IMG/VR virus record: IMGVR_UViG_3300037354_000009
Span: 1 to 62,685 of that record
Source: a virus
Lineage: Duplodnaviria > Caudoviricetes
Strand: one strand, 5' to 3'
Length of the DNA: 62,685 nt
Below the pieces are notes generated by a model. The model made no database searches, was not told the origin of the DNA, and was given only the letters and a program-made list of their open reading frames with translations. The first letter of the stretch is position 1. Every line of letters begins with the position of its first letter. Both the position numbers and the translations under genes were made by a program. Positions 16,024-56,551 of the stretch are shown piece after piece.

Positions 16024-16052
16024 GCAAAACAGGCTGTTTTCCTGGGTATAAG
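16024..16052 (+). promoter_or_regulatory. phage promoter class A
   Basis: GCAAAA-N17-TATAAG (GGGTATAAGGATA); followed by hairpin CTGCTACA/TGTAGCAG and RBS. Confidence 0.8.
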
Positions 16053-16525: not shown

Positions 16526-16554
16526 TGAAAAACATGGGTTTGGGTGGGTATAAG
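16526..16554 (+). promoter_or_regulatory. phage promoter class A
   Basis: TGAAAA-N17-TATAAG (GGGTATAAGGATATTG). Confidence 0.8.
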
Positions 16555-18914: not shown

Positions 18915-18943
18915 GCAAAAACTTCCTGTGTTCGAGGTATAAG
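18915..18943 (+). promoter_or_regulatory. phage promoter class A, abutting the terL start codon on the opposite strand
   Basis: GCAAAA-N17-TATAAG (AGGTATAAGGATATTG). Confidence 0.75.
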
Positions 18944-18946
18944 GAT

Positions 18947-19080
18947 ATTGGTTGAGAGGAGTCTTACTCTGTCAACCAATCAAAACTCTGCTGGACCTCA
19001 GCACTGCATTGGTACCTAGTGAAAACTAGGAACCATTCATTGCTGATAGCCAACAGACCGGCGTAAGCCGGTCCAGTACT
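18947..19080 (+). ncRNA. candidate structured small RNA (~135 nt)
   Basis: no ORF; stems ATTGGTTGA/TCAACCAAT, TCAGCA/TGCTGA, CCTAGT-GAAA-ACTAGG, GACCGGC-GTAA-GCCGGTC (two GNRA loops on + strand); directly after class A promoter. Confidence 0.6.
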
Positions 19081-19088
19081 TAGCCCTA

Positions 19089-20517: not shown

Positions 20518-20535
20518 GGGACACCTCTCGTGGAC

Positions 20536-22563
20536 TTAGGCCTGTGGTGCAGCGTCGAGTGTCTTCAGTCCCGCAACTACCTTGTCCAGATGCACCAGTG
20601 CTCGCTGAAGGGCCCCCTCATCTACAGTGTGCAGCCCCATCCTGGTAGCTACCAGAAGCTCTGCCATCTTGCGGATGACAGACTCGAACTCTGGGATGTA
20701 TCCAGCAAAGATGGCTACGTTCTCAGGGTTAATGAACCCCACCGACAGTACCTTGTCCACCGCCGTCGGGTCCTCTAGCATCGCTGCTTCCTTGAGAAGG
20801 TAGGCACGAAGAGGAGGGAGCTTATTCATGACGTCTGCAGCAGCCAGCTTGGCCTTACCGTAGCGTTCACTCATGAGGGTGACTGGCTTGGCAGAGAACC
20901 ACATCTCGTGGCTCGCCTGCTTTTGCATGCTCACCAGATCTTGAGCGAACTGCACAGGCTCCTGTCCCAACACCGCTCCCAAGAACACAGCATCGTCCTT
21001 GTCCACGAACTTGGTCGGGATTAGGTGGGCAACCTTGTCAATCTCTTGACCCTGGAAGCTGTACTCCACGCCATTCGTGATGACCCGAACAGCATTCGTC
21101 ATGGCCAGGGCCTGGCCTACCTTGGTGAACTCATCTGGAGATGAGGCAAGATCAGTAGGCTCATTGAGCGTGATGAAGCCGCACTCTTCTGGAATACCGT
21201 AGTGCCCCTCTTCGATCATGGCTGGCATCTTCAGACCAGGAACCTTGGAGACCGTGATCTTCTCACCCAAGGTAGTGTCACAGTGGAATGACATACCCTC
21301 TGGTGTCTCTTCGCAAGCAGTGACGTTGACAGGAGTGAAGGCCAGCGCCCCATCAGAAGCAGCATGGTAGAAGCAGCCAAGACCCTCTGGATCTGAATCG
21401 ATCAGGTCACTGGTCTTTGCTACTGCCACACCCGCAATGTTCTCCTGTACAGCGGACTCGCTGCCGTTGGTGAACACAGACATAGGCAACAACGTACCAT
21501 CAAAGTCCATGATCTTTGGGAACACCCAGCCAACCAACTCACGGTTCTCGTTCTGGGTCTTGACCTTGTACATACCGAACTTGTTGACCACTTCGATTGT
21601 CACATCTACCAGGGTCTTCTTCACTGCAGGTTCTGATGTGATGGTAGTGGTGCCGTCTGCCTCTACTTTGGACACCATGTCCCCACCAAGAGCACCGACT
21701 GCTGCTTGACGAGGGATATCCTGAGCATCAGGGATGAAGGCATCTGGATTGGCCGTCTTGATACGGAAGCCATCGTCTAGCCTCTTGATCTGAATAACGG
21801 TGGGCTTGATAGCCCCAGCTATCTTGCGAAGGTAGTCTTCTCCGCTGCCGACATTGGCAGTCGCAGCCTTCGTCAGCTTCTTGATGAAGCCCATAGCTGC
21901 AGCGTTCTTGGTCAGGGTGCCAGCCAAGCTCCACGCTTCATCAGTCTCACCACCGACCTTGCTGAGCACGTCACTGGCCTGCTCCCTGGTGATGGTGGGT
22001 AGGATGGCGTCGAACAGGAACTCTGGGTGAGCTCCACCCTCCTTGCCCATGCCACCGGAGGCACCAACGTCTGCCATCATGGGGCCACGAGCACCACCAT
22101 ACTGACGGTGAGGTGGGTACAGCTGCTCAATGAGAGAGATGTCGCCTGGCCGCTCACGGATAGCTTCGAACAGGTTGGGGCGGAACAGGGCCTTACGTAG
22201 GCGCTCATCTGTGAGAGGCTCCACCTTCCCATCGTAGACCAAGGTGTCTAGCTGCTTGAGCTTGCCATCCTGGACAATGATCGGAATGATAGCCTTCTGC
22301 CTACCCTTCAGGGTAGCAGGGGTATCATCATCCCGTGGGTTGATGGCCATCTTGTTGAGGAGTTCGACCTGACCCAGGCCATACCGCCTGTCCGAGTCCA
22401 CCACCCGGAGCACCACCTTGGGGGCGTACTCGCTGGTGTAGGGGGCCTGACGGTACAGCTCATCGAGAATCTGCTGAGGCCAGTCATTGGCATCCTCGCT
22501 TAGCATGCACTCCATGCCTAGCTTCTCGAGTTGGATTGGGTTTTGATCTAGAAAGAGGTTCAT
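20536..22563 (-). CDS. large putative head core protein with K-x-A/G motifs
   Basis: 675 aa; EKLG, SKVG, TKNA, RKIA, TKVG, DKVA, QKQA, AKLA, LKEA. Confidence 0.65.
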   Translation of the reverse strand: MNLFLDQNPIQLEKLGMECMLSEDANDWPQQILDELYRQAPYTSEYAPKVVLRVVDSDRRYGLGQVELLNKMAINPRDDDTPATLKGRQKAIIPIIVQDGKLKQLDTLVYDGKVEPLTDERLRKALFRPNLFEAIRERPGDISLIEQLYPPHRQYGGARGPMMADVGASGGMGKEGGAHPEFLFDAILPTITREQASDVLSKVGGETDEAWSLAGTLTKNAAAMGFIKKLTKAATANVGSGEDYLRKIAGAIKPTVIQIKRLDDGFRIKTANPDAFIPDAQDIPRQAAVGALGGDMVSKVEADGTTTITSEPAVKKTLVDVTIEVVNKFGMYKVKTQNENRELVGWVFPKIMDFDGTLLPMSVFTNGSESAVQENIAGVAVAKTSDLIDSDPEGLGCFYHAASDGALAFTPVNVTACEETPEGMSFHCDTTLGEKITVSKVPGLKMPAMIEEGHYGIPEECGFITLNEPTDLASSPDEFTKVGQALAMTNAVRVITNGVEYSFQGQEIDKVAHLIPTKFVDKDDAVFLGAVLGQEPVQFAQDLVSMQKQASHEMWFSAKPVTLMSERYGKAKLAAADVMNKLPPLRAYLLKEAAMLEDPTAVDKVLSVGFINPENVAIFAGYIPEFESVIRKMAELLVATRMGLHTVDEGALQRALVHLDKVVAGLKTLDAAPQA

Positions 22564-22572
22564 TGCGTTCTC

Positions 22573-22866
22573 CTACGTAATCATTCCTTGGATCAGGGGT
22601 CCACCTGCTGTACCAGGTGGGCAGGTACCCATCACCATAGCGTTGGATAGTAAGTGCGCCACTACGGCCTTAGCCACAGCATCAGCTATGACCTGGGCCA
22701 TGGGGTCAGCCATGAAGGTTGGCTTCAAAGTAGGTGTCGTCGTGACACTTATAGTACCGTCACCATTATCCGTCTTGTTGATGGCTGTTTCTGGAGACAT
22801 GCCGATAGGCACCGTGGTCAACAGTGAGTGGATGGCAGCCGATAGTGCGTTTGGATCTAGTGGCAT
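22573..22866 (-). CDS. small baseplate/spike-associated protein
   Basis: 97 aa immediately downstream of gpV-like spike gene. Confidence 0.5.
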   Translation of the reverse strand: MPLDPNALSAAIHSLLTTVPIGMSPETAINKTDNGDGTISVTTTPTLKPTFMADPMAQVIADAVAKAVVAHLLSNAMVMGTCPPGTAGGPLIQGMIT

Positions 22867-22869
22867 GTT

Positions 22870-24093
22870 CTACTTCAAATAAACGATCTTTGCGAGGATG
22901 CTAGCCAGTGCCCCTGCCTGAATGGGAGGACCATTGGGTACGTGAGTATGTGTTGCGAGCCAGTTCAATAACTGTAACCCAAGAACGCCTGGCTCGGAAG
23001 CGTCTGCACCACCTAATTTCAAAGAGGATGCAGTGATTGACTTGATCTTGGCCCAAGTCTCTGCACTTCCCTCATTTCCAGTAATGGTGTGGTCTTTCTT
23101 GATGGTCTCAGTGAGAGCACCCTGCACTATGAGTTCACGATCCTTAGTGACGGTGATGCTCTGTGTACCATCCACTGTCAGCGTGTCTGTACCGGTGATC
23201 TCTACCTTGCGGTCACCCTGCATCGTGTAGGTGGTGCCGTCTCTACCTATTCGAAGGATGAACTTCTCACTCTGGGTGGTTCCATCTATTGGATTCACGT
23301 TGTCTGGAGAGACCACCACTTCTATGAATGGAACAGCGTCACTGGGAAGATGGGTACTCTTAATCAAGGAGCCGACGCTTACCTTGACAGAAGCCATCTT
23401 ATCTTGAGCAAACTCTCTGGCCACCAGCATGAACTGCGTGGGAGCATCAGCATCAGGCGTGGTCTCCGACGGGTGCACCACCCAGCTCATGGTTCCGGCT
23501 GCTGTGTTCAGCTCGTAGTTCTCGCAGAAGTCCCGGATGTAGTTGCCTAGAGGTATGTAAGCCCGCTGACAGATATTAGTGGACCCTATCTGAAGGACAC
23601 CACCTCGACGCATGACTACGAAGTTCTCATCCCGGCCCTGCCACAGCATGTCCCCAGGGTTGAGCACGGGTCTCTTCGACCGGTAGCTTGCGTCCGAGAC
23701 CCTCTCCTGGGTAGTGCCACCGGAGGTGGATACCTTGGGCGTAGAGACGAGAGCAGTCTCCTGGGTACCTGTTGGCTCCTCCTGGGCGTTCGTACTGCCA
23801 GAGTCCACTGCCGATGCTTCAGGGGCAGTGAGGAACCCCATGACGAAGGGAGACTCGTCATCAGATGGCCAGCAGAGCACGCACACGGCACCTACCTCAG
23901 GCACTACGGTGAAGCCCTCACCGTTGTTGTAGTGGAGGTATGGGGCCATGATTTGCACCCCAGCGATCTGCCTGCCTGAGTGTTGGGACACCCAGTCTAT
24001 GGTCATGTTCTGTGGGTTCACGTTGGCTACGACACCGGTCTCACATCGAAACCGGCTCTTGCCGTCGCTCACCATTGAGTTCTTGAAGGCCAC
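22870..24093 (-). CDS. baseplate central spike protein (gpV/gp45/gp5-like)
   Basis: N-terminal OB-fold (GVVANVN...VPEVGAVCV...PFVMGF), 8-residue beta-helix repeats (ITGTDTLT VDGTQSIT VTKDRELI VQGALTET), C-terminal THTH tip motif. Confidence 0.75.
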   Translation of the reverse strand: MAFKNSMVSDGKSRFRCETGVVANVNPQNMTIDWVSQHSGRQIAGVQIMAPYLHYNNGEGFTVVPEVGAVCVLCWPSDDESPFVMGFLTAPEASAVDSGSTNAQEEPTGTQETALVSTPKVSTSGGTTQERVSDASYRSKRPVLNPGDMLWQGRDENFVVMRRGGVLQIGSTNICQRAYIPLGNYIRDFCENYELNTAAGTMSWVVHPSETTPDADAPTQFMLVAREFAQDKMASVKVSVGSLIKSTHLPSDAVPFIEVVVSPDNVNPIDGTTQSEKFILRIGRDGTTYTMQGDRKVEITGTDTLTVDGTQSITVTKDRELIVQGALTETIKKDHTITGNEGSAETWAKIKSITASSLKLGGADASEPGVLGLQLLNWLATHTHVPNGPPIQAGALASILAKIVYLK

Positions 24094-27000
24094 TAGTATT
24101 CCCCTGGCTTTCCTTTTCCTACCTCAGCACCGTACACAATGGCTGGGATCGGATGGACCCCGTGGATGCTACTCGTCCAGCCCTTCTGAGCTGCTTCTAT
24201 GATCGTATCCGACAGGTTCTCGTGATTGAGCTTAGCTATCCAGTCTTCTTGCATCTCTAGTGGTAGTACGTTGACACCCTTGAGAATGGGCTCATGGATT
24301 ATTGGGTGAGCTCCCTTAGGCATGCTCCTGTTGATACTGGAGACCTGAGACGTAGAAGCAAAGTCTCCACGGATATACCCAGTGGAGGAGCCTGGGTCCT
24401 TGATCTTAGTGAGGTTGGTCAGTGCCTTCACCACTACCTCGTGGTTCCTTCTACGGATACCCGAGTCAGCGAAGGCATTGCTTAGCTCCTTGGCCAAGTG
24501 CAATTGCACAGGCTCTACACCAGTGAGAGCAAGCATCTCGTGTGGATTCACCAGACCACCAGAGATTGGGCTACCCTTCTTAACCTCCATCCCGACCTTC
24601 AACGGCTGTCCGTTGTACATCGGGGCACCTATTGCGTGGGGTACGTAGTGCGTGTGCCCTTCTACGGTGACTTCGTAACCACCGGCTGCTGATGGGGCGA
24701 TCTTAGTTACCTTACCATTCACTCCGCTCAAAGTAGCAGACCCAGGCAGTACCTTCGGGAAGGCCAACAGATTCTTGACGTTCTCGAAGTCATCGACCAG
24801 AGCACTCTTAGAAGAGGCGGTACCACCAGTGTGGAACGCCTTCAGGGCCAGCTGCGTAGTGCGTTCGCCCAGGGACTGCCCAGCAAGGACACCTACGTTG
24901 AGTCCCTTCTCTGGCAACACACCGTTCTCTGTGAGACCGTAACACTTCTGGCAGATACCGGGCCCGTGCAGGCAGCGAAGTGGAGACCTGACCACTACCT
25001 TACCCACGTTATTGTTCCGTAGGGAATTGCGTACCTCAGGTGTGATCAGTGTGCCTGTCTTGAAGACGTGGCTGCCTGCCTTGATGTCAGCCGCAGTGAA
25101 CCTATCCAGGACGTCCTTGTCATCTACACCAAGGGCTATACCCTTATCTGTACCGCAGTCATGATCTACGATCAAATTGTTCATGACCGAGTTCATGACC
25201 TGCTTGCTGATGTAGCCAGGCTCCTGAACGGATTGAACCTTCTGGATGATGCCCTTACGGGAACCACTGATAGCCGTCCAGTAGTCTGCGACATCCAGTC
25301 CTTCGGAGTAAGACCTACGAACTGGAGTAGGGATGATCTCTCCCTTGTGATTGCTCATGAGCATGGGCGCAGCACGTATCTGCCTGAGGGTATCGGTACC
25401 ACCCTTCATGCCCACGTTGTGCAGGAGCATCAGATTGTTATCGCTCTCGGACACAGCCCTAAGATGTTTGTTCATCTCATTAGTGGCTGCAGCGTAGATG
25501 TCAATCTGCTTTTGATCTTTGTGTGGGCCAGTAAGCTTGTGTACTTTGGCATCGGCTTCAGCCAAGATCTTGTCTCTCATGTGGCGCTCAGGAGCTATGT
25601 CCTTCATGCCAATGGAGAAGGCCGTGTCTGTGGCCCACATGTTCCCGAGATCTTTCAGCTTGTTAGCAGCGTCACTGTACTCACCCTTGTGCTCCTTGCC
25701 GATCTGGGTGAACATGGCTTCCTGTGCCTTCTTGTCTAGAGAGGCACTGCCCTCTAGTAGCTTCCGGCGCATGGCCTCTGGTAGAGCACCGGCTACCATG
25801 AATCTTCCTACACTAGCCTTCATACCGCCTACAGACACTCTATCAGTGAGGTGCGCTTCTCCCCTCCTGACAGCAGCCTCCATCTCCTGCATGTTGGCGA
25901 ACTTATGATTCGTATTCTTCCCAGGCTGCATGATTCCATACAACCCGAGTCTGCTCTCGTTAGTCGGGGCGTACATGATGTCCCCTGTAGAAGGACTGAA
26001 TAGGTTCCTTGAGGGCAGCATCTTGTGTGCTTCTGCCACAGCTTCTACGCTCACAGGTACGAAGGCACCCATGGCATCGCCATCGAAGTCAGCATTGAAT
26101 CCGCTGGTAACCAGAGGGTGTACCTGCACCGCCTTGCCTCCTACTATACGAGGCTTGAATGCCTGCACACCGTACTTGTGGAGAACAGGATCTCTCTTGA
26201 GGAGAATGGGCCTACCTGCCATGACTCTGTTCAAAGCACGATCAACTATCTCACCACCCTCAGTCAGCTGCTTCTGTGCCTGCAGTGGGGTAATGCCAAG
26301 CATGTTCTTCAGCTCACGTACAACGAATGGCTTGTACACCTCGAGTGCAGCAGACCTAGGCAGGCCTACTTCGTCCAACCCTAGAGACGGCTCTGGGATA
26401 ATGGTTCCACGCATGGACATGTCCTGCTTGCGTTCGACCAATTGATCTTGGAAGAAGCCCTCCTTGGGAGAGCCACCCTTAGCGCCTGTCCTGACATCTA
26501 TGACCTTCTTGCCGTGGATGTAGTCCAGGATTCCTCTGCGCACCTGGGACGGGTACCCACCAATACCAGCCAGTGCACGAAGGCCATCATAGACCTCATT
26601 ACGAACGTCAACCTTCGACGGATCATCATCCGGGATCAATGGAGACATCTTAGAGTAACGAGAAGCCGATAGGTGCAGGTTCTTGTAAAGACCATTCAGA
26701 TCTTCTTCGCTGATGGTTCCATTGGGTAGCACTGGTAGAGGCCGCATCGAAGGAGGAAGAATAGGTATGGTCTTGGCTAGGTACGCTTGAGAAGGGGTCA
26801 TGCCCACCTTGTCTAGCGCCTGCAGCAACTTCACTTTGCTGTTGGCATGGTCTAGGTAGGAGCCTTTCAACGTAGGCTTATCTAGTGCGATCTTAGCGGC
26901 AGCTAGGTCTCTCTTCACATCGATCTTTCCAAGCATGTGCTCGAAAGCCTTACCTCCTACGATCCCACCAGGCATCTTCTCAGCCAGCCCTATCTTACCC

Positions 27001-30000
27001 GTACCAGGATCTACGGCTAGCGTACCACCCACCACCCCATCGAACTCTTTCTGCTTGATGCCAAGCAAACGAATGATCGCACTCTCAAAGACTGGATTCG
27101 GAAAGGCTTCTGGCAGGTGGTAATGTGACCACTTCGTACCCTCTAGCCCACCAGTAACCTTGGGGTCGAACAAACCACCGGGTTCTGGCTTCATGTTCTT
27201 GGCAGTAACCCACCGAGCTGGATCTGTGATCTCACCGTTGCTCTGCTCAACGATCTGCTTGTCAGTCATCGGCATCAACGTGAGATTGTTCCCTACTTTG
27301 TGTACATTCACCCCTAGCCCCTTGATGTACCCAAGGAACTTGTGATACGCAAACGAAGGCTTAGGTGTAGGCAACATCTCTCCAGCCTGGAGAGCGGACC
27401 AGAACTGATCTCCTTGAGCAGCGTCACTCTTCAGAGTCTGCATCTCTCGCAAGTTGGCCACTGCACCGTGAGCCAGCATAGAGTACAGACCAAGGGTACC
27501 CAGAGACTTGGCTCCCTGTGGACCACCGCCCCTAGGGATCATGTTCTTGTCGTAGGCGTAGCCAGTACCACCAGCACGAGCACTCAGCTTCTTTTCTACC
27601 TGGTGATGGAGCTTGAAGACGTGCATGGGTCCGACTAAAACGTCACCCATCTTGTTGTGAGTAACGGGATCGAATACCTCTTCCTTGTCTGTGAGTCCAT
27701 GCTTCTCGAGGTCAGCCGTCACCTGTGCATGGAAGTCTGCGCCTGGAGCAAAGTTCTTGACCAGGTAAGGCTTGCCAGTCTTCTCTGCAATCTTACCGGC
27801 TGCGACCTCGAGCACCTGCCCTAAGTTGGTTCTACCCGTGACACCCAGTGGGTTCAGTAAGATCTCAAGATGCCTACCGTCCTTGGTGTGTGGCATCTCG
27901 CTGTCAGGTATGATGCGAGTAACGATACCCTTATTACCGTGCCTGCCTGTGGCCTTGTCACCGATCTCAAGTGGCTCCTCAGTCTTCACGTGTACTGACA
28001 CGTTCTTGCCGACCTTCACCACCTCTTTGACGATACCAGAGTAGTCGCTGTCCCACTTGATGCTGGAGTCTTTGTACGGCCTGACGATGGACTTGTGAAG
28101 CTTCGACAGTTCTATGTCTTCCTTACGCTCAGGATCATTAGAAGCACGAAGAGCAGCCACCAAAGTATCCCCAGGCATAATCACTGTACCTGGTAGTACG
28201 ACGCCTTCTTCATCTAGCTTGTCGTACTGAGCCTTGTTCATGGCCGTTGGCATGTACGCCTGGAACTTCTTCTTGTCCAGGATGTGTGCGATGTCCCGCT
28301 CCAGAGAGTGCCTGTGCAGGTGCTCAGATGTCAGCTTCTTAGCTGCGCTCTCGCTGACCACGATGCCGTCATCAAAGTTGTACCCTTTGTAGGGCATGAA
28401 CCCTGCTCGCAGGTTGGTTCCTATGGCTAGAGTACCGCCCTTGGTGTAGTTGGTATCAGCAATGGTCTGCCCATCAGTAACCCGATCACCCACCTTAACG
28501 ATGGGCTCAGCATGCATGAAGGCCTTGTCCTCGTTCAGTGGAAAATTATCGTAGATGTGTACCTCGTGCTTGCCACCATCAGATTTCTTGATGATGATGG
28601 AGTCGGACTTGATCTTGTGGACTACGCCATCTACTGGAGATCTGTGACTAGCAAAAGTACCGACCACCTTATCAAAACTATTGGCACCAGCCATGCTCTG
28701 AACAAGAGGGACCTCCCTATGCTTGAGCGAGATAGCTTGTTCCATCTGCCGACCAGCCATGGTGCTACGGTTCGGGTGATCTGAGGGCATGAATGGAATC
28801 ATGTTGGATGACATAGAGAACATCTGAAGAGGGTCCTTCATGATGTAGTCTGCGTCCTTCAACTTCCCCTCATAGATCTCGTTGCCTGGCCCACTGATCT
28901 TGACTACGTCACCTGCAGCCTTTGGCTTGCCGCCTTCCCAGTGTACTTGATCTGGTAGAGCTACGTGTGACCGGTATGCCAGAGCAGGATTCACATCCTC
29001 ATGCTTCCCAGTCTTCGTGTTGTACATACGCACAACAACATCGTGCCCCTTCTTGATGACACCAAGAGGGAGTCGCAGGGTGATGCCGGTAGCGTGACCT
29101 TCGGGAGTATGGATAGGGTCCAAGAATCCTAAGTGAGAGGGGTCAATCAACTTGGCATCGTCGCTGATCTGATGCTCAGACTTGACGCCACCATCCCCCA
29201 TGATGGTTGTCTTCATCTGCGCAGAAACCATCTCCAACGGATTCGTCTGGTCCGTAACGATAGCTAGAGAGTTCTTACCGAACATCTGCTTGATCGGACG
29301 GTTGAACACCTCTGGAGAGATGATGTCCCTGACTCTATCCTTTCGGTCAATGTTATTGTTGACCTTCCTTATGATCTCTCTAGAGCCTTTGATCAACCTC
29401 TCTGCTGCAAAGTCCTCAATCGAATGGAGGTCTTTGAACATGAGAGCATCACGTGGGTCTGGCTTAGCCTCACCTCGAGAGATCTGAAGGAGCTTGTGAG
29501 ATGCGTCCAACAATAATGGGCCAGTGACTGATGTGTACCCTTTACCTAAGGTGAATAGGTTCACCTCTGGACGAAGTACAGTCTTGCCCATGGTCTCCCA
29601 CAGGTGCGCCTTTGCCTCATCTGGCGTGGGCTTAGTAGTCTTGTCACCTGTAGATGCCCGGTAGAACTTGGCCAGTTCCTTGGTCTCGTCTGCGTGATTG
29701 ACACCTACGATGTCTTTACCCCAGGACTTCTCTACCTCTTCCTCAGACACACCCATGGCGTGTAGGAACGGTTTCAATGGCATGTTTGAGTTGCCGTAGT
29801 TCAGTGTGAACTCCTTCGACTTTGGATCGAAGTGTACCTTGAACCCGCCAATAGCATTGACATGAGACTCGAGAGCCCCGTCTGCTTTGACCATGTTATA
29901 GACACCTGGCTTCAGCCTCCACTGGTTGTCTATCTGGTACTCTTGGCCATCCACAATGTGGCTATACCTACTGGTGACCTTAGGCAGGTTCAGCAGGTTC

Positions 30001-30260
30001 ATCTTCTGCTTGTCTATGACCTTGCCAGAAGTGTTGTCCTTCAAGGTGACTGTGGCTTCAACAGGAACGGACCAAGTACGTCCGCTCAGCTTGGCCTGTT
30101 TCTGTGACCTGAGATCATCGATACTCAGATTATCTTTAACCGCTACATCATGTAGTTCTAGCGTGTTCTTCCGCCCGATTATGGGGAAGAGCCCGCTGAC
30201 TGCCTTTTGTACTCGGTCCTTGAGGAGTTCAAACCCCTCTTCCGGTGCAAGACGTGCCAA
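24093..30260 (-). CDS. rpoBC: single-polypeptide two-barrel DNA-directed RNA polymerase, fused beta and beta' homologues
   Basis: beta motifs GDKATGRHGNKG, LLNPLGVTGRTNLGQVLE, KLHHQVEKKLSAR; beta' motifs RPILLKRDPVLHK, HPLVTSGFNADFDGD (~26076-26096), DCGT, VRSPLRC..GICQKCYG, GQSLGERTTQLALKAFHTGG; TTG start with RBS GAGGA. Confidence 0.95.
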   Translation of the reverse strand: MARLAPEEGFELLKDRVQKAVSGLFPIIGRKNTLELHDVAVKDNLSIDDLRSQKQAKLSGRTWSVPVEATVTLKDNTSGKVIDKQKMNLLNLPKVTSRYSHIVDGQEYQIDNQWRLKPGVYNMVKADGALESHVNAIGGFKVHFDPKSKEFTLNYGNSNMPLKPFLHAMGVSEEEVEKSWGKDIVGVNHADETKELAKFYRASTGDKTTKPTPDEAKAHLWETMGKTVLRPEVNLFTLGKGYTSVTGPLLLDASHKLLQISRGEAKPDPRDALMFKDLHSIEDFAAERLIKGSREIIRKVNNNIDRKDRVRDIISPEVFNRPIKQMFGKNSLAIVTDQTNPLEMVSAQMKTTIMGDGGVKSEHQISDDAKLIDPSHLGFLDPIHTPEGHATGITLRLPLGVIKKGHDVVVRMYNTKTGKHEDVNPALAYRSHVALPDQVHWEGGKPKAAGDVVKISGPGNEIYEGKLKDADYIMKDPLQMFSMSSNMIPFMPSDHPNRSTMAGRQMEQAISLKHREVPLVQSMAGANSFDKVVGTFASHRSPVDGVVHKIKSDSIIIKKSDGGKHEVHIYDNFPLNEDKAFMHAEPIVKVGDRVTDGQTIADTNYTKGGTLAIGTNLRAGFMPYKGYNFDDGIVVSESAAKKLTSEHLHRHSLERDIAHILDKKKFQAYMPTAMNKAQYDKLDEEGVVLPGTVIMPGDTLVAALRASNDPERKEDIELSKLHKSIVRPYKDSSIKWDSDYSGIVKEVVKVGKNVSVHVKTEEPLEIGDKATGRHGNKGIVTRIIPDSEMPHTKDGRHLEILLNPLGVTGRTNLGQVLEVAAGKIAEKTGKPYLVKNFAPGADFHAQVTADLEKHGLTDKEEVFDPVTHNKMGDVLVGPMHVFKLHHQVEKKLSARAGGTGYAYDKNMIPRGGGPQGAKSLGTLGLYSMLAHGAVANLREMQTLKSDAAQGDQFWSALQAGEMLPTPKPSFAYHKFLGYIKGLGVNVHKVGNNLTLMPMTDKQIVEQSNGEITDPARWVTAKNMKPEPGGLFDPKVTGGLEGTKWSHYHLPEAFPNPVFESAIIRLLGIKQKEFDGVVGGTLAVDPGTGKIGLAEKMPGGIVGGKAFEHMLGKIDVKRDLAAAKIALDKPTLKGSYLDHANSKVKLLQALDKVGMTPSQAYLAKTIPILPPSMRPLPVLPNGTISEEDLNGLYKNLHLSASRYSKMSPLIPDDDPSKVDVRNEVYDGLRALAGIGGYPSQVRRGILDYIHGKKVIDVRTGAKGGSPKEGFFQDQLVERKQDMSMRGTIIPEPSLGLDEVGLPRSAALEVYKPFVVRELKNMLGITPLQAQKQLTEGGEIVDRALNRVMAGRPILLKRDPVLHKYGVQAFKPRIVGGKAVQVHPLVTSGFNADFDGDAMGAFVPVSVEAVAEAHKMLPSRNLFSPSTGDIMYAPTNESRLGLYGIMQPGKNTNHKFANMQEMEAAVRRGEAHLTDRVSVGGMKASVGRFMVAGALPEAMRRKLLEGSASLDKKAQEAMFTQIGKEHKGEYSDAANKLKDLGNMWATDTAFSIGMKDIAPERHMRDKILAEADAKVHKLTGPHKDQKQIDIYAAATNEMNKHLRAVSESDNNLMLLHNVGMKGGTDTLRQIRAAPMLMSNHKGEIIPTPVRRSYSEGLDVADYWTAISGSRKGIIQKVQSVQEPGYISKQVMNSVMNNLIVDHDCGTDKGIALGVDDKDVLDRFTAADIKAGSHVFKTGTLITPEVRNSLRNNNVGKVVVRSPLRCLHGPGICQKCYGLTENGVLPEKGLNVGVLAGQSLGERTTQLALKAFHTGGTASSKSALVDDFENVKNLLAFPKVLPGSATLSGVNGKVTKIAPSAAGGYEVTVEGHTHYVPHAIGAPMYNGQPLKVGMEVKKGSPISGGLVNPHEMLALTGVEPVQLHLAKELSNAFADSGIRRRNHEVVVKALTNLTKIKDPGSSTGYIRGDFASTSQVSSINRSMPKGAHPIIHEPILKGVNVLPLEMQEDWIAKLNHENLSDTIIEAAQKGWTSSIHGVHPIPAIVYGAEVGKGKPGEY

Positions 30261-30321
30261 GGATTCCTCGCTTTATGTGTGTGGTCAGGACAAAGGTACC
30301 AGAACGCATCAAGTATGGGCA

Positions 30322-30350
30322 TGAAATTATACTGCGCAAAGCGGTATAAG
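30322..30350 (+). promoter_or_regulatory. phage promoter class A (variant), divergent from RNAP gene
   Basis: TGAAAT-N17-TATAAG (CGGTATAAG); followed by hairpin GCAAGGG/CCCTTGT. Confidence 0.65.
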
Positions 30351-30407
30351 TACTATGCAAGGGAAGAAGACTTCGCCCTTGTAAGACATACGACGAAGGA
30401 GCCGCTA

Positions 30408-30548
30408 ATGAGCATGTCCACCGAAGATCGATCATCCTTGGATTCATTCAGTGATATGGTCCAAGGAGAGGTATCAGACGACAAAGAGGAAGATGGAGGC
30501 GGCGGCGGAGGACAAGACGCAGAAGAAGATGCCGGTGATGACAGGTGA
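30408..30548 (+). CDS. small highly acidic protein (46 aa)
   Basis: RBS AAGGAG then ATG 30408; MSMSTEDRSSLDSFSDMVQGEVSDDKEEDGGGGGGQDAEEDAGDDR. Confidence 0.5.
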   Translation: MSMSTEDRSSLDSFSDMVQGEVSDDKEEDGGGGGGQDAEEDAGDDR

Positions 30549-30632
30549 TCATCTTTTTGGCAAGCTTCTTTGCGAGTTTGCTGGCCACAGTGACTAGGAG
30601 GCCAAATAGCAACTGGGACAACGGTACCAGCG

Positions 30633-31238
30633 GTGAGGCTAAGCGACAGTTGTAGTAGTTGCGGCGACGCAATGTATGATCGACAGCTGTCGATGATAGA
30701 GAGCGGGTACATGCAACCCATGCTAAAAGATCCTAGGTTTTTCAGGTTTGTAGCATGGGCGGCTGTACCTCTAGACGATAGACCAGAGGGTGCAGTAAGC
30801 ATCCTGATACTGATCCACCAAGACTGCTTCATGAGTAGCCGAGGAGAGCTAGAAGATGAGTTGGCTGCTCCAGAAGCAAGAGACTCGAGGCACTGCGATC
30901 TGTGTCGAAGAAGGTTCGATCCGTACCACAAGATGTTCCAAGTAACCGAGTGGTGCCCGATGCCTGAAGCTAGTGACGAGAACGGTCAACCAGAGTTTGT
31001 TCTGGACCCGACCGTTGAGAAGATTCTCCTCTGCCCAGGGTGCATGAAACGCATCTTGGGCGAGGGGGATGAAGAAGAGGGAGACGCCTACCTAACCGAA
31101 GGCATTCTCCCTACCACAAAGGAGGAAGACAATGATGCCACTGAACCCTGCAGTACCGGGGGTGACTCTGGCCAACTACGCAGAAGAGACCCTGAAAGTA
31201 GACGGGCTAGATTCAAACGTCTATTTATACCGAGCTAG
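30633..31238 (+). CDS. putative zinc-binding protein
   Basis: CSSC, HQDC, CDLC, CPGC pairs. Confidence 0.6.
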   Translation: MRLSDSCSSCGDAMYDRQLSMIESGYMQPMLKDPRFFRFVAWAAVPLDDRPEGAVSILILIHQDCFMSSRGELEDELAAPEARDSRHCDLCRRRFDPYHKMFQVTEWCPMPEASDENGQPEFVLDPTVEKILLCPGCMKRILGEGDEEEGDAYLTEGILPTTKEEDNDATEPCSTGGDSGQLRRRDPESRRARFKRLFIPS

Positions 31239-31494
31239 GCTCGAGTACGGCCTGACGTCAATCCCAGTAGAAGTAGTAAGGCTATCCAACGACATGGCAA
31301 TAACGATGTACTGGTTCCCCAGGATCAAAGCTGCCGTAGCGTTGGAGCATTACAAACACCAAAAAGAAGCAGGACTAGCAGCCTCTGATCCAGAGGTGCA
31401 CAAAGTGAATGACATGCTTCACTCTGTGCGCCAAATGCTGGGAATCAACAATACAGTATGCGGCAAACGTAAGAGAGCTGAGAGTAACCTGTGA
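31132..31494 (+). CDS. hypothetical protein
   Basis: 120 aa, RBS AAGGAGG; converges on portal stop. Confidence 0.6.
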   Translation: MMPLNPAVPGVTLANYAEETLKVDGLDSNVYLYRARLEYGLTSIPVEVVRLSNDMAITMYWFPRIKAAVALEHYKHQKEAGLAASDPEVHKVNDMLHSVRQMLGINNTVCGKRKRAESNL

Positions 31495-33537
31495 TCAGAC
31501 TTGCGCAGCTTCAGGACCTCTGCGAGGTGCACGTTGCAGTGGCAACGCTCTCGCAGAGGCCTGTGAGGCGGCGGTGGGACCGTTACCGCCGCTCATCATT
31601 AGCCCCATAACCGTATCGTGCAGAGCTGGGTTGTACTGCTTTAGCCTACCGAGCATGACTGGCTTCTCCCCAGGGTTGAGCCTGGAGAACTTGTCCGCCA
31701 GCTTCCGTGCCATGAACAGCAGGTCCACATTCATGCCACCAGCTATATCTTCGTTGGTAGCAGAAGGTGGATGCCTCTGAACACTCTGCAGGGAGAGTGG
31801 AGAGTTGATCTCCTTAGGCCCAGCAATCAGTGATGGGTTCCTTGGGGTAGGTGTCAGGTCTGGATTTTTAGGTGGGGGTTGCTGTCCTGTTTGAGCAGCA
31901 GCCTGATCTTGCATCATTCCGTTCTGAAGCTCAGACTGGAATGCCATCTGATCTTTAGCCCCCTCACCCTGGATAGCGACTTGTTCAGCCATGGCTTTGG
32001 CTTGAGCCTTGTTGACCCACTTCTGCTGGACCAACTGTGCTTCGCCTTCCATCTCTGCCTGGAGCAGACGCTGCTTCTTCATCGCACCGATGCGACGAGT
32101 AGCTTCGTTCTCCATGATCTGGTCTTCCTTAGCAGAGTCGTAGTCTGCATCCGAGCAGAGAGACTCGTCTGAGATCTTCCCGGCCTGGTTGAGCTGGAAC
32201 AGATAAGCCTTCCTCTGTAGGTCGTCTGCCATCTTGAATGGCTTGAACCTTGCCCCGACCTTGGCCCAGCCTAGGTAGGAAGCCGTACGTTCAATCACCC
32301 AATGCAGCAGTGCCAGCTGATCAGATAGGTAGCCCAGGAACATGTTCTCGAGCATACGCAGAGACACGTTGGACCCCGAATAACTGAGCCCGCCGAAGAT
32401 GAGTTCGGTAGGCACGCCCATACCTGCGATGATGTGTTCGGACCACACTCTGATCTCTTGGCTCAAGAGTAGGGCCCTACCATCACCGCCGATTGTCTGT
32501 TGACCAATGGGCAATGGGAGGATGGGGATATAGTTGTTGTCTGCCCTCCACCGACGCAGCTCTCCTGCGATCTGGTCATGCCAGTCCATCAAGTTGACGG
32601 AGGTGTACGGGTCCGACGTAGCTGACCCAGCCTGTGGGAACAGCACACGCAAAGGAACAATGTGCTCGAGGGCGATGGACTCCTGAGCCTTGCGGAGAAC
32701 CTGAAGGTAGAACGTATCCTTCAGAACAGGCAAGATCATAGGGGTACCCCAACCTCTATCCTTCCCGGCCAACGTGGGCCGCTTGAAGTGATAGATGTTG
32801 TCACGAGAGAACACGACAGCTTTTCTTAGCCTTAAAGCATCAATGAAGAGCTGTGGCATGGTCTCCACAGTGGACTTCTTCCCCATGATGATGTCGTTCT
32901 TGATCTGAACAGGGATGGTGTAGTAGTACTCCGACTCACCGGTGATGTCGTTGTACCGGGTATCGATATCCTCGGGGTTCCACCTGAGCAAACGAATGCC
33001 CTTTGGTGCCTTGATGTAGTGATCACGAACCAAGGCAATGTCAGCATGGCTGCACTTGGTGCACTCCCAGTGGAACTCAAAGTTCTGGAAGCGGTACGTG
33101 GCATCAGCAGCCTGCTTCTCATGCCCACAGCGCTTGCACTTGAGCATCTTCACGAAGGGGTAGAAGATACTGACCAAGGCGTTGCCATAGGCGTAGTAGT
33201 CCAGCCCCAGTTCAATCTGGAAGGGACGGTACCTGAGCTGAGAGTTCAGGAAGGTGTACCACTTCTCCTTCAGATCTGGCTTGTCCGTGTCCAGGATGAT
33301 GTCAGTGACTGGGTAGTCCGCCATCTTGGCCACGACTGCATTGATCAGTGGGTTGACCAAGAAGTAGTACCTGCACCACCGGAACATCTGCTTGACGGTA
33401 GCCGGTAGGTAGGTCTGACCAATGTCAAAGAATGGACTCGGGTACTGCAGACCGTAGTCAGAGGAGCTACCGGTACGTCCACGAGACCTAGAGAAACGAA
33501 GTGCAGAGGAGTCCGCACCGCCCAATCCTACAGACAT
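31495..33537 (-). CDS. portal protein with zinc-ribbon insertion
   Basis: 680 aa; RYYFLVNPLINAVV, YYAYGNALV, LLRWNPEDI, IYHFKR...GWGTPMILP; CKRC/CTKC insert; Q-rich C-terminus. Confidence 0.75.
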   Translation of the reverse strand: MSVGLGGADSSALRFSRSRGRTGSSSDYGLQYPSPFFDIGQTYLPATVKQMFRWCRYYFLVNPLINAVVAKMADYPVTDIILDTDKPDLKEKWYTFLNSQLRYRPFQIELGLDYYAYGNALVSIFYPFVKMLKCKRCGHEKQAADATYRFQNFEFHWECTKCSHADIALVRDHYIKAPKGIRLLRWNPEDIDTRYNDITGESEYYYTIPVQIKNDIIMGKKSTVETMPQLFIDALRLRKAVVFSRDNIYHFKRPTLAGKDRGWGTPMILPVLKDTFYLQVLRKAQESIALEHIVPLRVLFPQAGSATSDPYTSVNLMDWHDQIAGELRRWRADNNYIPILPLPIGQQTIGGDGRALLLSQEIRVWSEHIIAGMGVPTELIFGGLSYSGSNVSLRMLENMFLGYLSDQLALLHWVIERTASYLGWAKVGARFKPFKMADDLQRKAYLFQLNQAGKISDESLCSDADYDSAKEDQIMENEATRRIGAMKKQRLLQAEMEGEAQLVQQKWVNKAQAKAMAEQVAIQGEGAKDQMAFQSELQNGMMQDQAAAQTGQQPPPKNPDLTPTPRNPSLIAGPKEINSPLSLQSVQRHPPSATNEDIAGGMNVDLLFMARKLADKFSRLNPGEKPVMLGRLKQYNPALHDTVMGLMMSGGNGPTAASQASARALPLQRAPRRGPEAAQV

Positions 33538-36097: not shown

Positions 36098-36109
36098 GGT
36101 CTCTTCTCC

Positions 36110-37578: not shown

Positions 37579-37608
37579 GCAAAAATATCAGAAATTCACG
37601 GGTATAAG
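37579..37608 (+). promoter_or_regulatory. phage promoter class A for replication operon
   Basis: GCAAAA-N18-TATAAG (GGGTATAAGCA); leader hairpin CCCAATC/GATTGGG. Confidence 0.75.
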
Positions 37609-54123: not shown

Positions 54124-54569
54124 GCTACCTGAAGGTGTGGATAGATCGTCTACCACCCTCATCCAACAAGATCTATGTGAGCGTCCCAGGAAAGGGGAGG
54201 TTCCTATCGCCACAGGCGTCAGCCTTCAAGGTGTACGCCATGCGGACGATCCAACAGCAGGGCAGGGTAGCCTTCCTAGGCATGAAGCAGAACGTACCAT
54301 ACGAGTTACGCCTGATAGTGTTCTTCGATCAAGTTGAGTACCTGAAATCTGCGAAGGGAACACGGTATAAGCGTATAGATCTTAGCAACCAAGTTAAGCT
54401 GATCGAAGATACGGTTGCAGCAGCAACAGGCATAGATGACTCGCATAACTTCAGGATGGTCTTGGAGAAGCACTGCGATCCAGACCACCCAGGTATGTAC
54501 GTCACCCTGCTACCCATCTCAGAAGATCGAGTTGGGCTCACCAAGGAGCAGTACGATGCAGACACGTAA
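54120..54569 (+). CDS. rusA: RusA-like Holliday junction resolvase
   Basis: LPPSSNKIY...DLSNQVKLIED...GIDDS. Confidence 0.75.
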   Translation: MSYLKVWIDRLPPSSNKIYVSVPGKGRFLSPQASAFKVYAMRTIQQQGRVAFLGMKQNVPYELRLIVFFDQVEYLKSAKGTRYKRIDLSNQVKLIEDTVAAATGIDDSHNFRMVLEKHCDPDHPGMYVTLLPISEDRVGLTKEQYDADT

Positions 54570-55868: not shown

Positions 55869-55898
55869 TGAAAAAGGCGCGTCATGTACGGGTATAAG
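55869..55898 (+). promoter_or_regulatory. phage promoter class A
   Basis: TGAAAA-N18-TATAAG (GGGTATAAGGAT). Confidence 0.75.
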
Positions 55899-56522: not shown

Positions 56523-56551
56523 GCAAAAGATGATCACATTCGGGGTATAAG
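56523..56551 (+). promoter_or_regulatory. phage promoter class A
   Basis: GCAAAA-N17-TATAAG (GGGGTATAAGGA). Confidence 0.75.

Follow-up and report, generated by a model that had tools for sequence, protein, structure and literature searches.

According to reviews of phage transcription, large phages either carry split, sigma-less RNA polymerases (RNAPs) of their own or use the host enzyme through sigma factors that they encode (PMC7598289, PMC7824862, PMC13282480). The RNAPs of phiKZ and AR9 are described there as two-barrel, β/β′-related enzymes without α or ω, split into 4–5 polypeptides and occurring as two paralogous sets, one of the two enzymes being packaged (PMC7598289, PMC7824862). 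Those accounts give no sigma-70 homologue for them; its place is taken by a fifth subunit, gp68 or gp226. The mReC of Weinheimer & Aylward (2020, PMC7481178) comprises uncultured tailed phages, partly from IMG/VR, whose β and β′ are detectable by COG/Pfam-type models. The system closest to the one reported here is that of Salmonella phage Arash (gp206 and gp216, with sigma gp10; OQ632216.1; PMC10585845) and the Vibrio phages D69, D148 and D181, which fall in the sister group in our β′ tree.

How does the present locus compare with these? It lies in a window of 62,685 nucleotides, the whole stretch of phage DNA analysed (IMG/VR record IMGVR_UViG_3300037354_000009), a fragment that CheckV puts at 33% complete. 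As in Arash and D69, whose RNAPs are 31–33% identical to it, β is fused to β′ at the same junction, the same deletion has removed the β′ zinc ribbon and a portal gene lies just upstream. In Arash and D69, however, β′ is divided between two genes, the break following the position equivalent to residue 1478 (1525 + 606 aa and 1527 + 609 aa, respectively), whereas in the window it is continuous, as in all 120 listed homologues; the loop corresponding to E. coli 553–569 is missing exactly at that cut point. The locus resembles mReC in that its RNAP falls outside the cellular clades (here, the sampled bacteria), has homologues of both β and β′ and carries the NADxDGD motif. The accessible mReC text mentions no β–β′ fusion, missing zinc ribbon or sigma, and names a fusion for crAssphage only; in those mReC contigs with detectable capsid and terminase genes, the capsids belong to PF07068 and many terminases to PF03237 (PMC7481178), unlike the window, where the capsid gene (7167–8288) has no Pfam match at E ≤ 0.01 and the terminase matches PF05876 (50.7 bits; PF03237 reaches 18 bits, under its cut-off of 22). 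The sequence-only reading of this DNA had pointed to the multisubunit-type RNAPs of phiKZ-like and some uncultured Caudoviricetes lineages. Phage multisubunit RNAPs do exist, but phiKZ is not the closest: the present RNAP is a single chain, each of five relatives' records has one RNAP locus, four of the five have a sigma-70-like gene, and Arash and D69 are nearer. The PHROG RNAP families match the window protein at 1e-28 or weaker, the phiKZ/AR9 types being far more divergent.

In one polypeptide, the gene product comprises the entire catalytic core of a bacterial-type RNAP (table 1). The TTG start aligns to the methionine of ‘MARL...’ in homologues. Pfam finds Rpb2_6 (PF00562, E 1.3e-58), Rpb2_3, Rpb1_2 (PF00623, 3.8e-25) and Rpb1_5 (9.7e-20), with a sub-threshold, partial match to Rpb1_1 (profile 197–241), and the best PDB sequence matches are bacterial β′ chains (E about 1e-95). 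Individual elements were mapped by aligning a family HMM to Salmonella β and β′, which carry E. coli numbering. The motif GDKxxGRHGNKG holds the conserved lysines of the β barrel (Rpb2 domain 6), and the end of β enters β′ at about residue 17–30 without a linker. The bridge helix (residues 1657–1693), lid and trigger loop are all present. Economies are made elsewhere: the β lobe is shortened (residues 179–245 correspond to β 223–420), SI2 and β 1128–1181 have no counterpart in the alignment, the rudder is shortened, the trigger loop lacks SI3, and both terminal tails are missing together with the β′ loop 553–569. Both AF2 models are mediocre overall (pTM 0.37 and 0.45); in the one that covers the clamp helices, these are helices 199–215 and 225–242 (model numbering). 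The claim that this is a real fusion bearing all the catalytic motifs in 2055 aa is thus borne out by the single frame, by Pfam, by the PDB matches and by the Salmonella alignment. Its compactness needs qualification. The chain is indeed shorter, but about 410 of the roughly 700 residues ‘missing’ relative to E. coli are the lineage-specific insertions SI1, SI2 and SI3, and the shortfall against S. aureus β and β′ (stop-to-stop frames of 1185 + 1215 aa) comes to about 340 aa. To call the enzyme ‘minimal’ was an overstatement, because E. coli served as the yardstick.

Table 1. Positions in the window of the RNAP gene, its parts, its neighbours and the promoter-like sites.
Feature	Positions	Strand	Basis or remark
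RNAP gene, single 2055-aa β–β′ chain	24093..30260	−	one open frame; TTG start, TAG stop
GAGGA Shine-Dalgarno/ribosome-binding site	30265..30269	−	4 nt before RNAP TTG; read directly
β-like part, about residues 1–990	27291..30260	−	Salmonella alignment; AF2 model, mean pLDDT 67.7
β flap with flap-tip region, residues 645–748	28017..28328	−	99/111 Salmonella positions aligned
β catalytic-barrel motif GDKxxGRHGNKG, residues 764–779	27924..27971	−	10/16 identical to Salmonella β 1060–1075
β/β′ junction, residues 981–1003	27252..27320	−	kept in 79 aligned members
Site of missing β′ zinc ribbon, residues 1024–1061, KPEPGGLFDPKVTGG-LEGTK-WSHYHLPE...	27078..27191	−	Salmonella alignment
β′ clamp helices, residues 1185–1231, predicted docking site of sigma region 2	26568..26708	−	Salmonella alignment; model
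NADFDGD Mg-binding motif, residues 1389–1395	26076..26096	−	alignment; β′ double-psi β-barrel
Second zinc site, residues 1698–1775	24936..25169	−	C1702, C1763, C1770, C1773
gp5-like tail spike gene	22870..24093	−	GTG start as listed; one base shared with RNAP stop codon
Portal protein gene, upstream of RNAP	31495..33537	−	same strand as RNAP; tblastn E 1.5e-87 to Arash gp204 ‘portal protein’, 8.2e-93 to D69 homologue
GGTATAAG promoter-like site	16045..16052	+	
GGTATAAG promoter-like site	16547..16554	+	
GGTATAAG promoter-like site	18936..18943	+	
GGTATAAG promoter-like site	30343..30350	+	83 nt from RNAP start, facing away
GGTATAAG promoter-like site	37601..37608	+	head of plus-strand replication block
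GGTATAAG promoter-like site	54364..54371	+	
GGTATAAG promoter-like site	55891..55898	+	
GGTATAAG promoter-like site	56544..56551	+	

Is the fusion peculiar to this contig? A database search returned 2235 matches at E ≤ 0.001. Among the 120 matches listed, all are single chains with both PF00562 and PF00623 (43–100% identity, 1655–3591 aa), the longer ones carrying intein or homing-endonuclease domains. Contigs of relatives extend to about 200 kb. For the family alignment we kept 79 of 121 proteins, leaving out one duplicate and 41 outside 2030–2160 aa; throughout these 79 the junction is kept, as is the zinc-ribbon gap. The single chain is the normal state in a large family of uncultured tailed phages. 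A quick IQ-TREE of β′ was computed from 44 rows, ten of them from the fused family and 30 from bacteria of five groups, the only cellular sequences sampled; the bacteria were picked by the pattern G[FY]NADFDG, which biases the sample. The fused family lies on one side of a branch with SH-aLRT 99, Arash and D69 are its sister (SH-aLRT 96), and the 30 bacteria all lie on one side of a branch with SH-aLRT 98. A 162-kb contig bearing one family member (L052) has indeed been binned into a MAG of a Leptolyngbyaceae cyanobacterium, as might be expected if the locus were a bacterial rpoB–rpoC stretch, whether captured from a host, a contaminant or wrongly binned, or if mis-assembly had fused two frames. 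Yet the RNAP is only 26–30% identical to bacterial β′ and is not nested within the bacteria, 30 of 30 being across a supported branch; its flanks are those of a phage (portal, terminase, major head protein and spike); and no assembly error is indicated when 79 independent sequences share the junction and every listed homologue is single-chain. The probability of a bacterial or artefactual origin is negligible, and we take the gene to be a phage-encoded RNAP of multisubunit type. It lies between the portal and gp5-like spike genes on the virion-gene strand, and the portal–RNAP order also holds in Arash.

The missing zinc ribbon, likewise claimed at the outset, is absent by alignment as well. 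Residues 1003–1037 correspond to β′ 30–63, and β′ 65–100, including C70, C72, C85 and C88, has no counterpart in the RNAP. There is no cysteine at residues 1030–1100, nor in 78 of the 79 aligned members, and the gap is identical in Arash gp206 and Vibrio D69 0261. The second zinc site was correctly said to be kept: its four ligands align with E. coli C814, C888, C895 and C898 and are present in 79/79 members. They are also the only cysteines in the whole protein, and exactly four cysteines occur in 69 of the 79. The cysteine content of minus-strand ORFs is 0.60%, against 1.67% for plus-strand ORFs; even at the lower rate the Poisson probability of zero non-ligand cysteines in the RNAP is 4.6e-6. 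The Arash RNAP is likewise poor in cysteine (one in gp206, four in gp216), and 106 of 120 homologues of the sigma-like protein described below have none. Low cysteine is a correlate of packaging; it falls short of proof.

If the enzyme needs a sigma factor, where is it encoded? As first noted, the window, about one-third of the genome by CheckV, holds none: six-frame searches found no match to Sigma70_r2 or Sigma70_r4, nor to α (PF01000) or ω (PF01192), with 0 matches for each of the last two. PF01000, PF01193 and PF01192 gave hits in 0/5 relatives' records, one of them 89% complete, in searches where controls gave 14/14, though very divergent homologues could escape. Sigma70_r3 (PF04539), on the other hand, was found by six-frame search in four of the five relatives, in G004 too above the cut-off. 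Three of these (G001, G002 and G005, with RNAPs 81%, 62% and 49% identical) each encode an orthologous sigma-70-like protein of about 255 aa, scoring 29.8, 35.3 and 29.7 bits for Sigma70_r3 against a cut-off of 25.3, with sub-threshold matches to region 2 or 4 in the right order. It matches PHROG 351, ‘RNA polymerase sigma factor’, at 1.4e-16, its gene adjoins a tail-fibre gene, and it is orthologous to Arash gp10, which carries a sigma-factor annotation (blastp 2e-27 to 2e-31). So the promoter-specificity factor, at first reported as unidentified, has a conserved candidate in the relatives. The protein has 123 database homologues, eight of which share their longest-contig size with RNAP homologues, placing sigma and fused RNAP on the same long contigs. 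The window contains no sigma because it is collinear with 16.4–85.5 kb of G001, the closest long relative, where the sigma gene lies at about 163.6–164.3 kb; the sigma of the present phage is therefore extrapolated from its relatives.

Could such a protein bind the fused chain? In bacteria the β flap tip is the docking site of sigma region 4. Both docking sites, clamp helices and flap tip, are retained here at near-bacterial length. We modelled window β′ residues 990–1509 with a relative's sigma (P0125) and obtained a score of 0.76, the best of three controls reaching 0.01; the mark used is reached by 58/80 solved complexes and 2/110 mismatched pairs. Runs agreed in at least 48% of contacts, with a partner pLDDT of at least 67. 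The predicted interface joins residues 1193–1222, in the clamp helices, to sigma residues 42–89 and 113–121. The model supports sigma binding, although the interface is a textbook one and may echo holoenzyme structures already solved. The relatives' sigma could instead serve the host core enzyme.

Which genes might such a holoenzyme read? The window holds eight exact copies of the octamer GGTATAAG, each on the plus strand, compared with an expectation of 0.66; none of 100 shuffles reached eight. In G001 there are 28, some at orthologous intergenic positions, and 28 family loci hold 39, of which 38 are on the strand opposite the RNAP gene. The density is 6.5 per 100 kb in family loci, whereas 79 bacterial loci have 0.8 per 100 kb. 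Fourteen of 27 family loci carry an exact divergent copy within 200 nt of their RNAP start; the 13 without one include all ten whose RNAPs are 41–49% identical (L015, L022–L025, L027, L029 and L030 among them). The 20.5-kb Arash locus has seven copies, again all opposite the RNAP strand, unlike the 19-kb locus of Vibrio D69, with no exact copy. In its extended form, tGaAAA-N17-(GG)TATAAG, the motif has a −35-like tGaAAA followed after about 17 nt by TATAAG. It is promoter-like, and judged from sequence the phage polymerase is a candidate reader. Neither the RNAP gene nor the sigma gene has GGTATAAG on its own strand. A sigma-70 consensus scan of 18001–38000 gave seven sites against 11.4 in shuffles, and no second promoter class is therefore definable for the virion block. 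One strong host-like site, TTGACA-18-TACTAT (37564–37535), heads the minus-strand block.

Mass spectrometry of Arash virion preparations gave 128 unique peptides for Gp206, 40 for Gp216 and 24 for the sigma Gp10, with 32 for the portal and 30 for the major capsid protein (PMC10585845). The 116 proteins of that proteome include ribonucleotide reductases, and the authors allow for carry-over of abundant proteins; in the part of the study available, no mention of CsCl was found (PMC10585845). That the RNAP of the present phage is packaged is suggested by analogy with Arash, whose RNAP is 33% identical.

Taken together, these observations favour a packaged single-chain core that, with a phage sigma, reads the non-virion genes, to which we assign a probability of roughly 0.6. 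The best-founded part is that the RNAP works as a holoenzyme with a phage sigma-70-family factor of about 255 aa (regions 2, 3 and 4) encoded outside the fragment; we think this quite probable. The fused chain would stand in for the α-dimer as assembly platform, neither α nor ω apparently being encoded, and the sigma would bind this core. Somewhat less securely, but still probably, late expression of the virion gene block yields polymerase and sigma, which are packaged in the particle and delivered along with the DNA. Whether the delivered enzyme then starts the non-virion genes at tGaAAA-N17-(GG)TATAAG is an evenly balanced matter. If it does, loss of the zinc ribbon may be part of a purge of non-essential cysteines, which is usual in proteins that leave the cytoplasm. 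More tentatively, the lineage as a whole may pack a sigma-dependent β–β′ core and its own sigma in the capsid, inject them with its DNA and run an ‘inverted’, N4-like programme in which this holoenzyme reads the non-virion genes from tGaAAA-N17-GGTATAAG, with the virion block, RNAP gene included, read otherwise; fusion, ribbon loss and cysteine removal would then be adaptations to packaging and to passage through tail and periplasm.

Might the enzyme not belong to the virion at all? RNAP and sigma could be made during infection for middle and late genes while host RNAP reads the early genes, GGTATAAG marking strong host-type early promoters. The Arash virion list, as available, holds obvious cytoplasmic enzymes, so carry-over is possible, but the RNAP and sigma peptide counts match those of portal and capsid while the ribonucleotide reductases have 2–11 (PMC10585845). 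The motif resembles a sigma-70 promoter, and the site heading the minus-strand block is strongly host-like. Yet in host sigma-70 promoters the last −10 base is almost always T, whereas the −10-like hexamer here ends in an invariant G. Furthermore, this phage and Arash share the octamer though their RNAPs are 33% identical, which a phage-borne reader fits better than differing host sigmas, and both the RNAP gene and the sigma gene have virion genes as neighbours and lack the motif on their own strand. A purely intracellular role is unlikely, but deserves to be kept in mind.

Considerably less probable is a minimal polymerase independent of sigma, with a specificity factor unrelated to it as in phiKZ and AR9, the relatives' sigma-like protein redirecting the host polymerase. 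The window itself would suit this, having yielded no sigma, α or ω, and phage sigmas that redirect the host polymerase are, in the available reviews, common in large phages lacking their own RNAP (PMC7824862, PMC7598289). But clamp helices and flap tip, where sigma docks, keep nearly their bacterial length; the complex model, with its textbook-pair caveat, puts sigma region 2 on those helices; the same long contigs carry both sigma and the fused RNAP; and in Arash virion preparations the sigma was found alongside the polymerase (PMC10585845).

If the packaged, sigma-dependent reading is correct, this would be the smallest natural sigma-dependent polymerase of multisubunit type, a natural experiment on the need for the α platform, ω and the β′ zinc ribbon, and a handy transcription system of one gene plus sigma, whose promoter is sharply defined. 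Packaging and promoter use can be tested directly in Arash, a cultured relative that grows on a laboratory Salmonella strain and shares the orthologous sigma and GGTATAAG opposite the RNAP strand.

Fusion of this kind has precedents. In the natural RpoB–RpoC fusions of Helicobacter and Wolbachia, and in the engineered β::β′ of E. coli, the β C-terminus is joined to the β′ N-terminus, its neighbour in the fold; the bacterial fusions keep zinc ribbon, α, ω and host sigmas and stand within their own bacterial clades. Phage N4 packs a large, T7-like single-subunit RNAP in its particle and injects it to read the early genes. The crAss-like phages likewise pack and inject a large RNAP for their early genes; the accessible text describes it as a highly divergent two-barrel protein without detectable β/β′ sequence similarity (PMC7481178). 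Both are functional analogues of the proposed programme; neither, so far as these accounts go, uses a sigma-70-type factor. Cobetia phage Carin-5 (PV155638.1) has adjacent sigma, β and β′ genes and so, like the relatives here, joins a bacterial-type core to an annotated sigma. It differs in its separate β (1083 aa, with ten cysteines) and β′ (927 aa, on a very long branch of our tree) and in its replication-type neighbourhood. Unlike either kind of large phage described in the reviews cited at the outset, the present family has a bacterial-type, single-chain core together with a sigma-70-type factor, and apparently neither α nor ω.

The RNA polymerase (RNAP) is encoded by a single open frame within a linear record of 62,685 bases that CheckV estimates to be 33% complete. 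Its TTG start, preceded by GAGGA and a 4-nt spacer, lines up in the homologue alignment with the M that opens 'MARL(S/A/D)PEEGF...', and the last base of its TAG stop also lies in the GTG start listed for the next gene. The first half of the chain matches the Pfam Rpb2 domains 6 and 3, and the second half Rpb1 domains 2, 3 and 5, with only a partial, sub-threshold match to Rpb1 domain 1. The solved structures closest in sequence are bacterial β′ chains (E ~1e-95).

How are β and β′ laid out in one chain? We aligned an HMM of 79 family members to the β and β′ subunits of Salmonella (E. coli numbering) and S. aureus. The β part ends at about residue 990 and β′ starts, without a linker, at the equivalent of about residue 17–30, so numbered that RNAP residues 1003–1037 correspond to β′ 30–63. 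The zinc ribbon, the four-Cys site I of β′ (β′ 65–100; C70, C72, C85, C88), has no counterpart in this alignment; across the gap the chain runs from GGLFDPKVTGG through LEGTK to WSHYHLPE. Besides the elements listed in the table, the lid and bridge helix are kept, as is the trigger loop, without SI3. The sequence-only reading had described an RNAP in one chain that lacks the zinc ribbon, and the frame, the Pfam matches and the 79-member alignment all confirm this observation.

Position of the RNAP gene in the window and of conserved elements in its product
Feature	Position	Strand	Status
RNAP gene	24093..30260	-	single open frame, 2055 codons
Beta flap with tip	RNAP residues 645-748		present
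Beta lysine motif	RNAP residues 764-779		present
Clamp helices	RNAP residues 1185-1231		present
NADFDGD	RNAP residues 1389-1395		present
Second zinc site	C1702, C1763, C1770, C1773 of RNAP		present

Relative to S. aureus the protein lacks 95 residues of the β lobe segment, 53 in the zinc-ribbon region, 45 in a β′ loop at E. coli 553–569, as well as the termini; in the comparison with E. coli, some 410 further residues are accounted for by the lineage-specific insertions SI1, SI2 and SI3. The RNAP therefore falls short of a Firmicute core by about 14%, and much of the 25% behind the compactness noted earlier is due to the insertions of E. coli. AlphaFold2 (AF2) models of the two halves gave a mean pLDDT of 67.7 and a pTM of 0.45 for the β part, and 63.7 and 0.37 for the β′ part. 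They are trustworthy only locally, over residues 10–270 and 10–240 of the respective parts, and the clamp coiled-coil exceeds a pLDDT of 80. A Foldseek search against the PDB returned bacterial β′ chains only (best E 9.9e-43), at a TM of ~0.28 because the domains are poorly arranged in the model. Given this local reliability and low TM, we do not infer the global shape of the RNAP from these models.

Could the fusion be an artefact of assembly? A protein search returned 2235 matches, and all 120 of those listed (43–100% identity, on contigs of up to ~200 kb) carry β and β′ Pfam domains in one chain. The family alignment retained 79 of 121 proteins, leaving out one duplicate and 41 outside 2030–2160 aa; these 79 share the β/β′ junction and the zinc-ribbon gap, and 78 are cysteine-free in the gap. 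By these comparisons the single chain is a family trait and no artefact. The longer of the listed homologues (up to 3591 aa) bear intein or homing-endonuclease domains. Such insertions, one to several per gene, occur in many family members (P0003–P0006, P0011–P0016 and others; PF14528, PF14890, PF05204, PF03161). In G001, a relative of 168 kb and 89% completeness whose RNAP is 81% identical and whose 16.4–85.5 kb stretch is collinear with the window, the frame (G001:C1:51719-60010) encodes 2773 aa and carries two insertions, both in the β part. The window copy is free of inteins and homing endonucleases.

Might the chain nest within a bacterial clade that has an intact zinc domain? We built a quick β′ tree (IQ-TREE, LG+C20+F+G4) of 44 rows. 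The rows of the family and of other phages were the window, 8 of 14 usable family loci, the contig L052, Salmonella phage Arash, Vibrio phage D69, Cobetia phage Carin-5 and one Rhizobium phage; the bacterial rows were Salmonella, S. aureus and 28 loci out of a set of 79 from bacteria. A branch with an SH-aLRT of 99 has the fused family as one side, and Arash and D69 are its sister (support 96). A supported branch (98) sets all 30 bacteria apart, and no such nesting is seen in this tree, which has neither archaea nor eukaryotes and covers few bacterial groups (Bacillota, Planctomycetota, Patescibacteria and some Gammaproteobacteria), picked with a search pattern that biases the choice. The placements of Carin-5 and the Rhizobium phage are unreliable on account of their very long branches (10 and 2.85). 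L052 (CBDHHL010000046.1, 162,553 bp) encodes a 2069-aa single-chain RNAP with a 39% identical β′. It is binned as a Leptolyngbyaceae cyanobacterium MAG, which reflects mis-binning of a phage contig or else hints at the host range. In Carin-5 (PV155638.1), σ, β and β′ are three adjoining separate genes beside those for a topoisomerase and a DNA polymerase; bacterial-type RNAP with σ is therefore found in more than one phage group.

What supplies promoter specificity? A six-frame Pfam search found no σ, α or ω gene in the window, a fragment of ~33% of the genome, and tblastn and a family HMM likewise place no σ-like gene there. A six-frame search with PF04539 found such a gene in four of the five relatives examined. 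G001, G002 and G005, whose RNAPs are 81%, 62% and 49% identical to that of the window, each hold an orthologous σ-like frame of ~255 aa (43–56% identical to one another), in which Sigma70_r3 exceeds its cut-off and regions 2 and 4 are sub-threshold in the right order; G004 is the fourth. Taken alone, Sigma70_r2 and Sigma70_r4 remain under the Pfam cut-off in all relatives. Weak matches in G003 and at 85.5 kb of G004 were dropped as unrelated frames, that of G004 being an HTH–HNH protein. The σ-like protein matches PHROG 351 'RNA polymerase sigma factor' and has an orthologue in Arash, gp10 (blastp 2e-27 to 2e-31, family HMM 7e-39). It has 123 database homologues, many of them named 'specialized sigma subunit' or 'FliA [uncultured Caudovirales phage]', and for eight of these σ homologues the longest contigs agree in size with those of the RNAP homologues. 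The G001 gene adjoins a tail-fibre gene at ~163.6–164.3 kb, beyond the part that matches the window. Models of α and ω gave no matches in the five relatives (controls 14/14), each of which has one RNAP locus.

We also predicted the complex of window β′ (residues 990–1509) with P0125, a σ that probably comes from a relative whose RNAP is 86% identical, as the longest contig of both proteins is 120,109 bp. The score was 0.76, against 0.01 for the best of three controls, with the verdict 'supports binding'; of 80 solved complexes 58 attain this mark, and of 110 mismatched pairs 2 do. The runs shared no fewer than 48% of contacts, and the pLDDT of the partner was at least 67. The predicted interface joins the clamp helices (residues 1193–1222) to σ residues 42–89 and 113–121. 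The contact of σ region 2 with the clamp helices is a textbook one; the result therefore expresses likeness to solved holoenzymes and is not proof that this pair binds, and the model does not show whether the σ would prefer the phage core or that of the host. Promoter specificity very probably comes from a phage σ70-type protein encoded elsewhere in the genome. The earlier interpretation is thus partly supported: the RNAP gene belongs to phages and not to bacteria, and the window has no σ, but the size gap was overstated and the factor described as unidentified has a candidate in four of five relatives, which in G001 lies outside the part collinear with the window.

Does the window carry a matching promoter signal? 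Counting the exact octamer alone, GGTATAAG occurs eight times, on the plus strand every time, against 0.66 expected; none of 100 shuffles reaches eight, and copies with one mismatch are not enriched (28 versus 25.3). At every copy tGaAAA lies ~17 nt upstream of TATAAG, and gAT follows most. The sites stand ahead of plus-strand genes, the replication block at 37.6 kb among them, and one, at 83 nt from the start of the RNAP gene, is directed away from it. G001 has 28 copies, including some at orthologous intergenic sites. With RNAP set to plus in 28 family loci taken from IMG/VR, 38 of 39 copies lie on the opposite strand. Their density is 6.5 per 100 kb, versus 0.8 in 79 bacterial loci, and in 14 of 27 family loci a copy that diverges from the RNAP gene lies no more than 200 nt from its start. 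Seven copies, all opposite to the RNAP strand, occur in the Arash locus and none in that of D69. The layout fits a σ70-family reader with regions 2, 3 and 4. Two points favour a phage-borne reader: the -10-like hexamer ends in an invariant G, where T is almost universal in host promoters, and GGTATAAG is common to phages with no more than 33% identity between their RNAPs.

For the virion block no second promoter class could be defined from GGTTGACA counts and a σ70 consensus scan: GGTTGACA is not enriched in the window (2 copies versus 2.9 expected), nor are consensus sites in 18001–38000 (7 versus 11.4 in shuffles). TGCCACCTA, with four copies in inconsistent contexts, was dropped as a candidate. 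In a divergent control region at 37505–37659, two sites point in opposite directions: a strong host-like one, TTGACA-18-TACTAT (10/12 matches), toward the minus-strand virion block, and a GGTATAAG site at 37601 toward the plus-strand replication block. Another GGTATAAG site, at 56544, lies 76 nt after the single tRNA-Met (CAT) gene (56395–56468, plus strand), with no obvious plus-strand frame downstream. Between RNAP and portal, 30207–31494 is a short island in which GC and AT skew switch sign; its plus-strand frames (30207–30548, with an acidic tail, 30633–31238 and 31132–31494) lie downstream of the GGTATAAG site at 30343, and the listed minus-strand frame 30353–30931, of low complexity with runs of S and P, is probably spurious. 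A family A DNA polymerase is seemingly in two plus-strand pieces, exonuclease-like (40166–40930) and polymerase (47493–49427), which match phrog_17 at consecutive profile positions and are separated by 6.5 kb that includes helicase and primase genes.

Does the RNAP travel in the virion? Its gene lies within the minus-strand virion block, which includes genes for the major head protein, terminase, portal and gp5-like spike as well as fibre-like genes. Its 2055 residues include only four Cys, every one a ligand of the second zinc site, whereas β plus β′ have 17 in S. aureus and 22 in Salmonella. At the rate of the minus-strand frames (0.60% Cys, versus 1.67% in plus-strand frames), 12.3 non-ligand Cys would be expected and none is seen (Poisson 4.6e-6). 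The four are kept in 79 of 79 relatives, 69 of which have exactly four, and 106 of 120 σ homologues are cysteine-free. The missing four-Cys ribbon thus appears to be one instance of a wider removal of cysteines, which fits, without proving, a protein that leaves the cytoplasm. Elsewhere in the window, 56757–58103 (minus strand) encodes a cysteine-free 448-aa protein with an InPase domain (PF18823, E 3.9e-42) that also matches PHROGs of minor head, virion structural and large polyvalent proteins, and that may be packaged as well.

Direct evidence for RNAP in the virion is limited to Arash. In its particle proteome, as reported in PMC10585845, Gp206 has 128 unique peptides and the highest number of spectra (3516); Gp216 has 40, σ Gp10 24 and the neighbouring helicase Gp217 38, beside 32 for portal and 30 for capsid. 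The list comprises 116 proteins, ribonucleotide reductases included at 2–11 unique peptides, and the authors there allow for carry-over.

How does this polymerase compare with those already described? In the main texts searched we found no description of a single-chain phage β–β′ RNAP or of zinc-ribbon loss, nor of the polymerase–σ pairing, bar a passing remark in the Arash paper (PMC10585845). The phages treated in passages of PMC12619734 are without any RNAP. The window phage may belong to the multimeric RNAP-encoding Caudovirales, although its capsid and terminase families fail to match theirs. The closest isolates are Arash (181 kb) and the Vibrio phages D69, D148 and D181 (187 kb), whose RNAPs are 31–33% identical. 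In Arash and D69, as in the window, the portal gene is just upstream of the RNAP gene, and the β/β′ junction and the zinc-ribbon deletion are the same. However, their β is fused to the front half of β′ only (1525 and 1527 aa), the rear half being a separate gene (606 and 609 aa), whereas the window RNAP runs on through both halves of β′. Their split point corresponds to residues 1479/1480 of the window protein (~25821–25826), where the single-chain family is without the bacterial loop (E. coli 553–569, S. aureus 550–594); this suggests that the surface loop tolerates deletion as well as chain breakage. We conclude that the RNAP represents the single-chain form in a phage lineage with two-chain cousins, among them that of a phage in culture.
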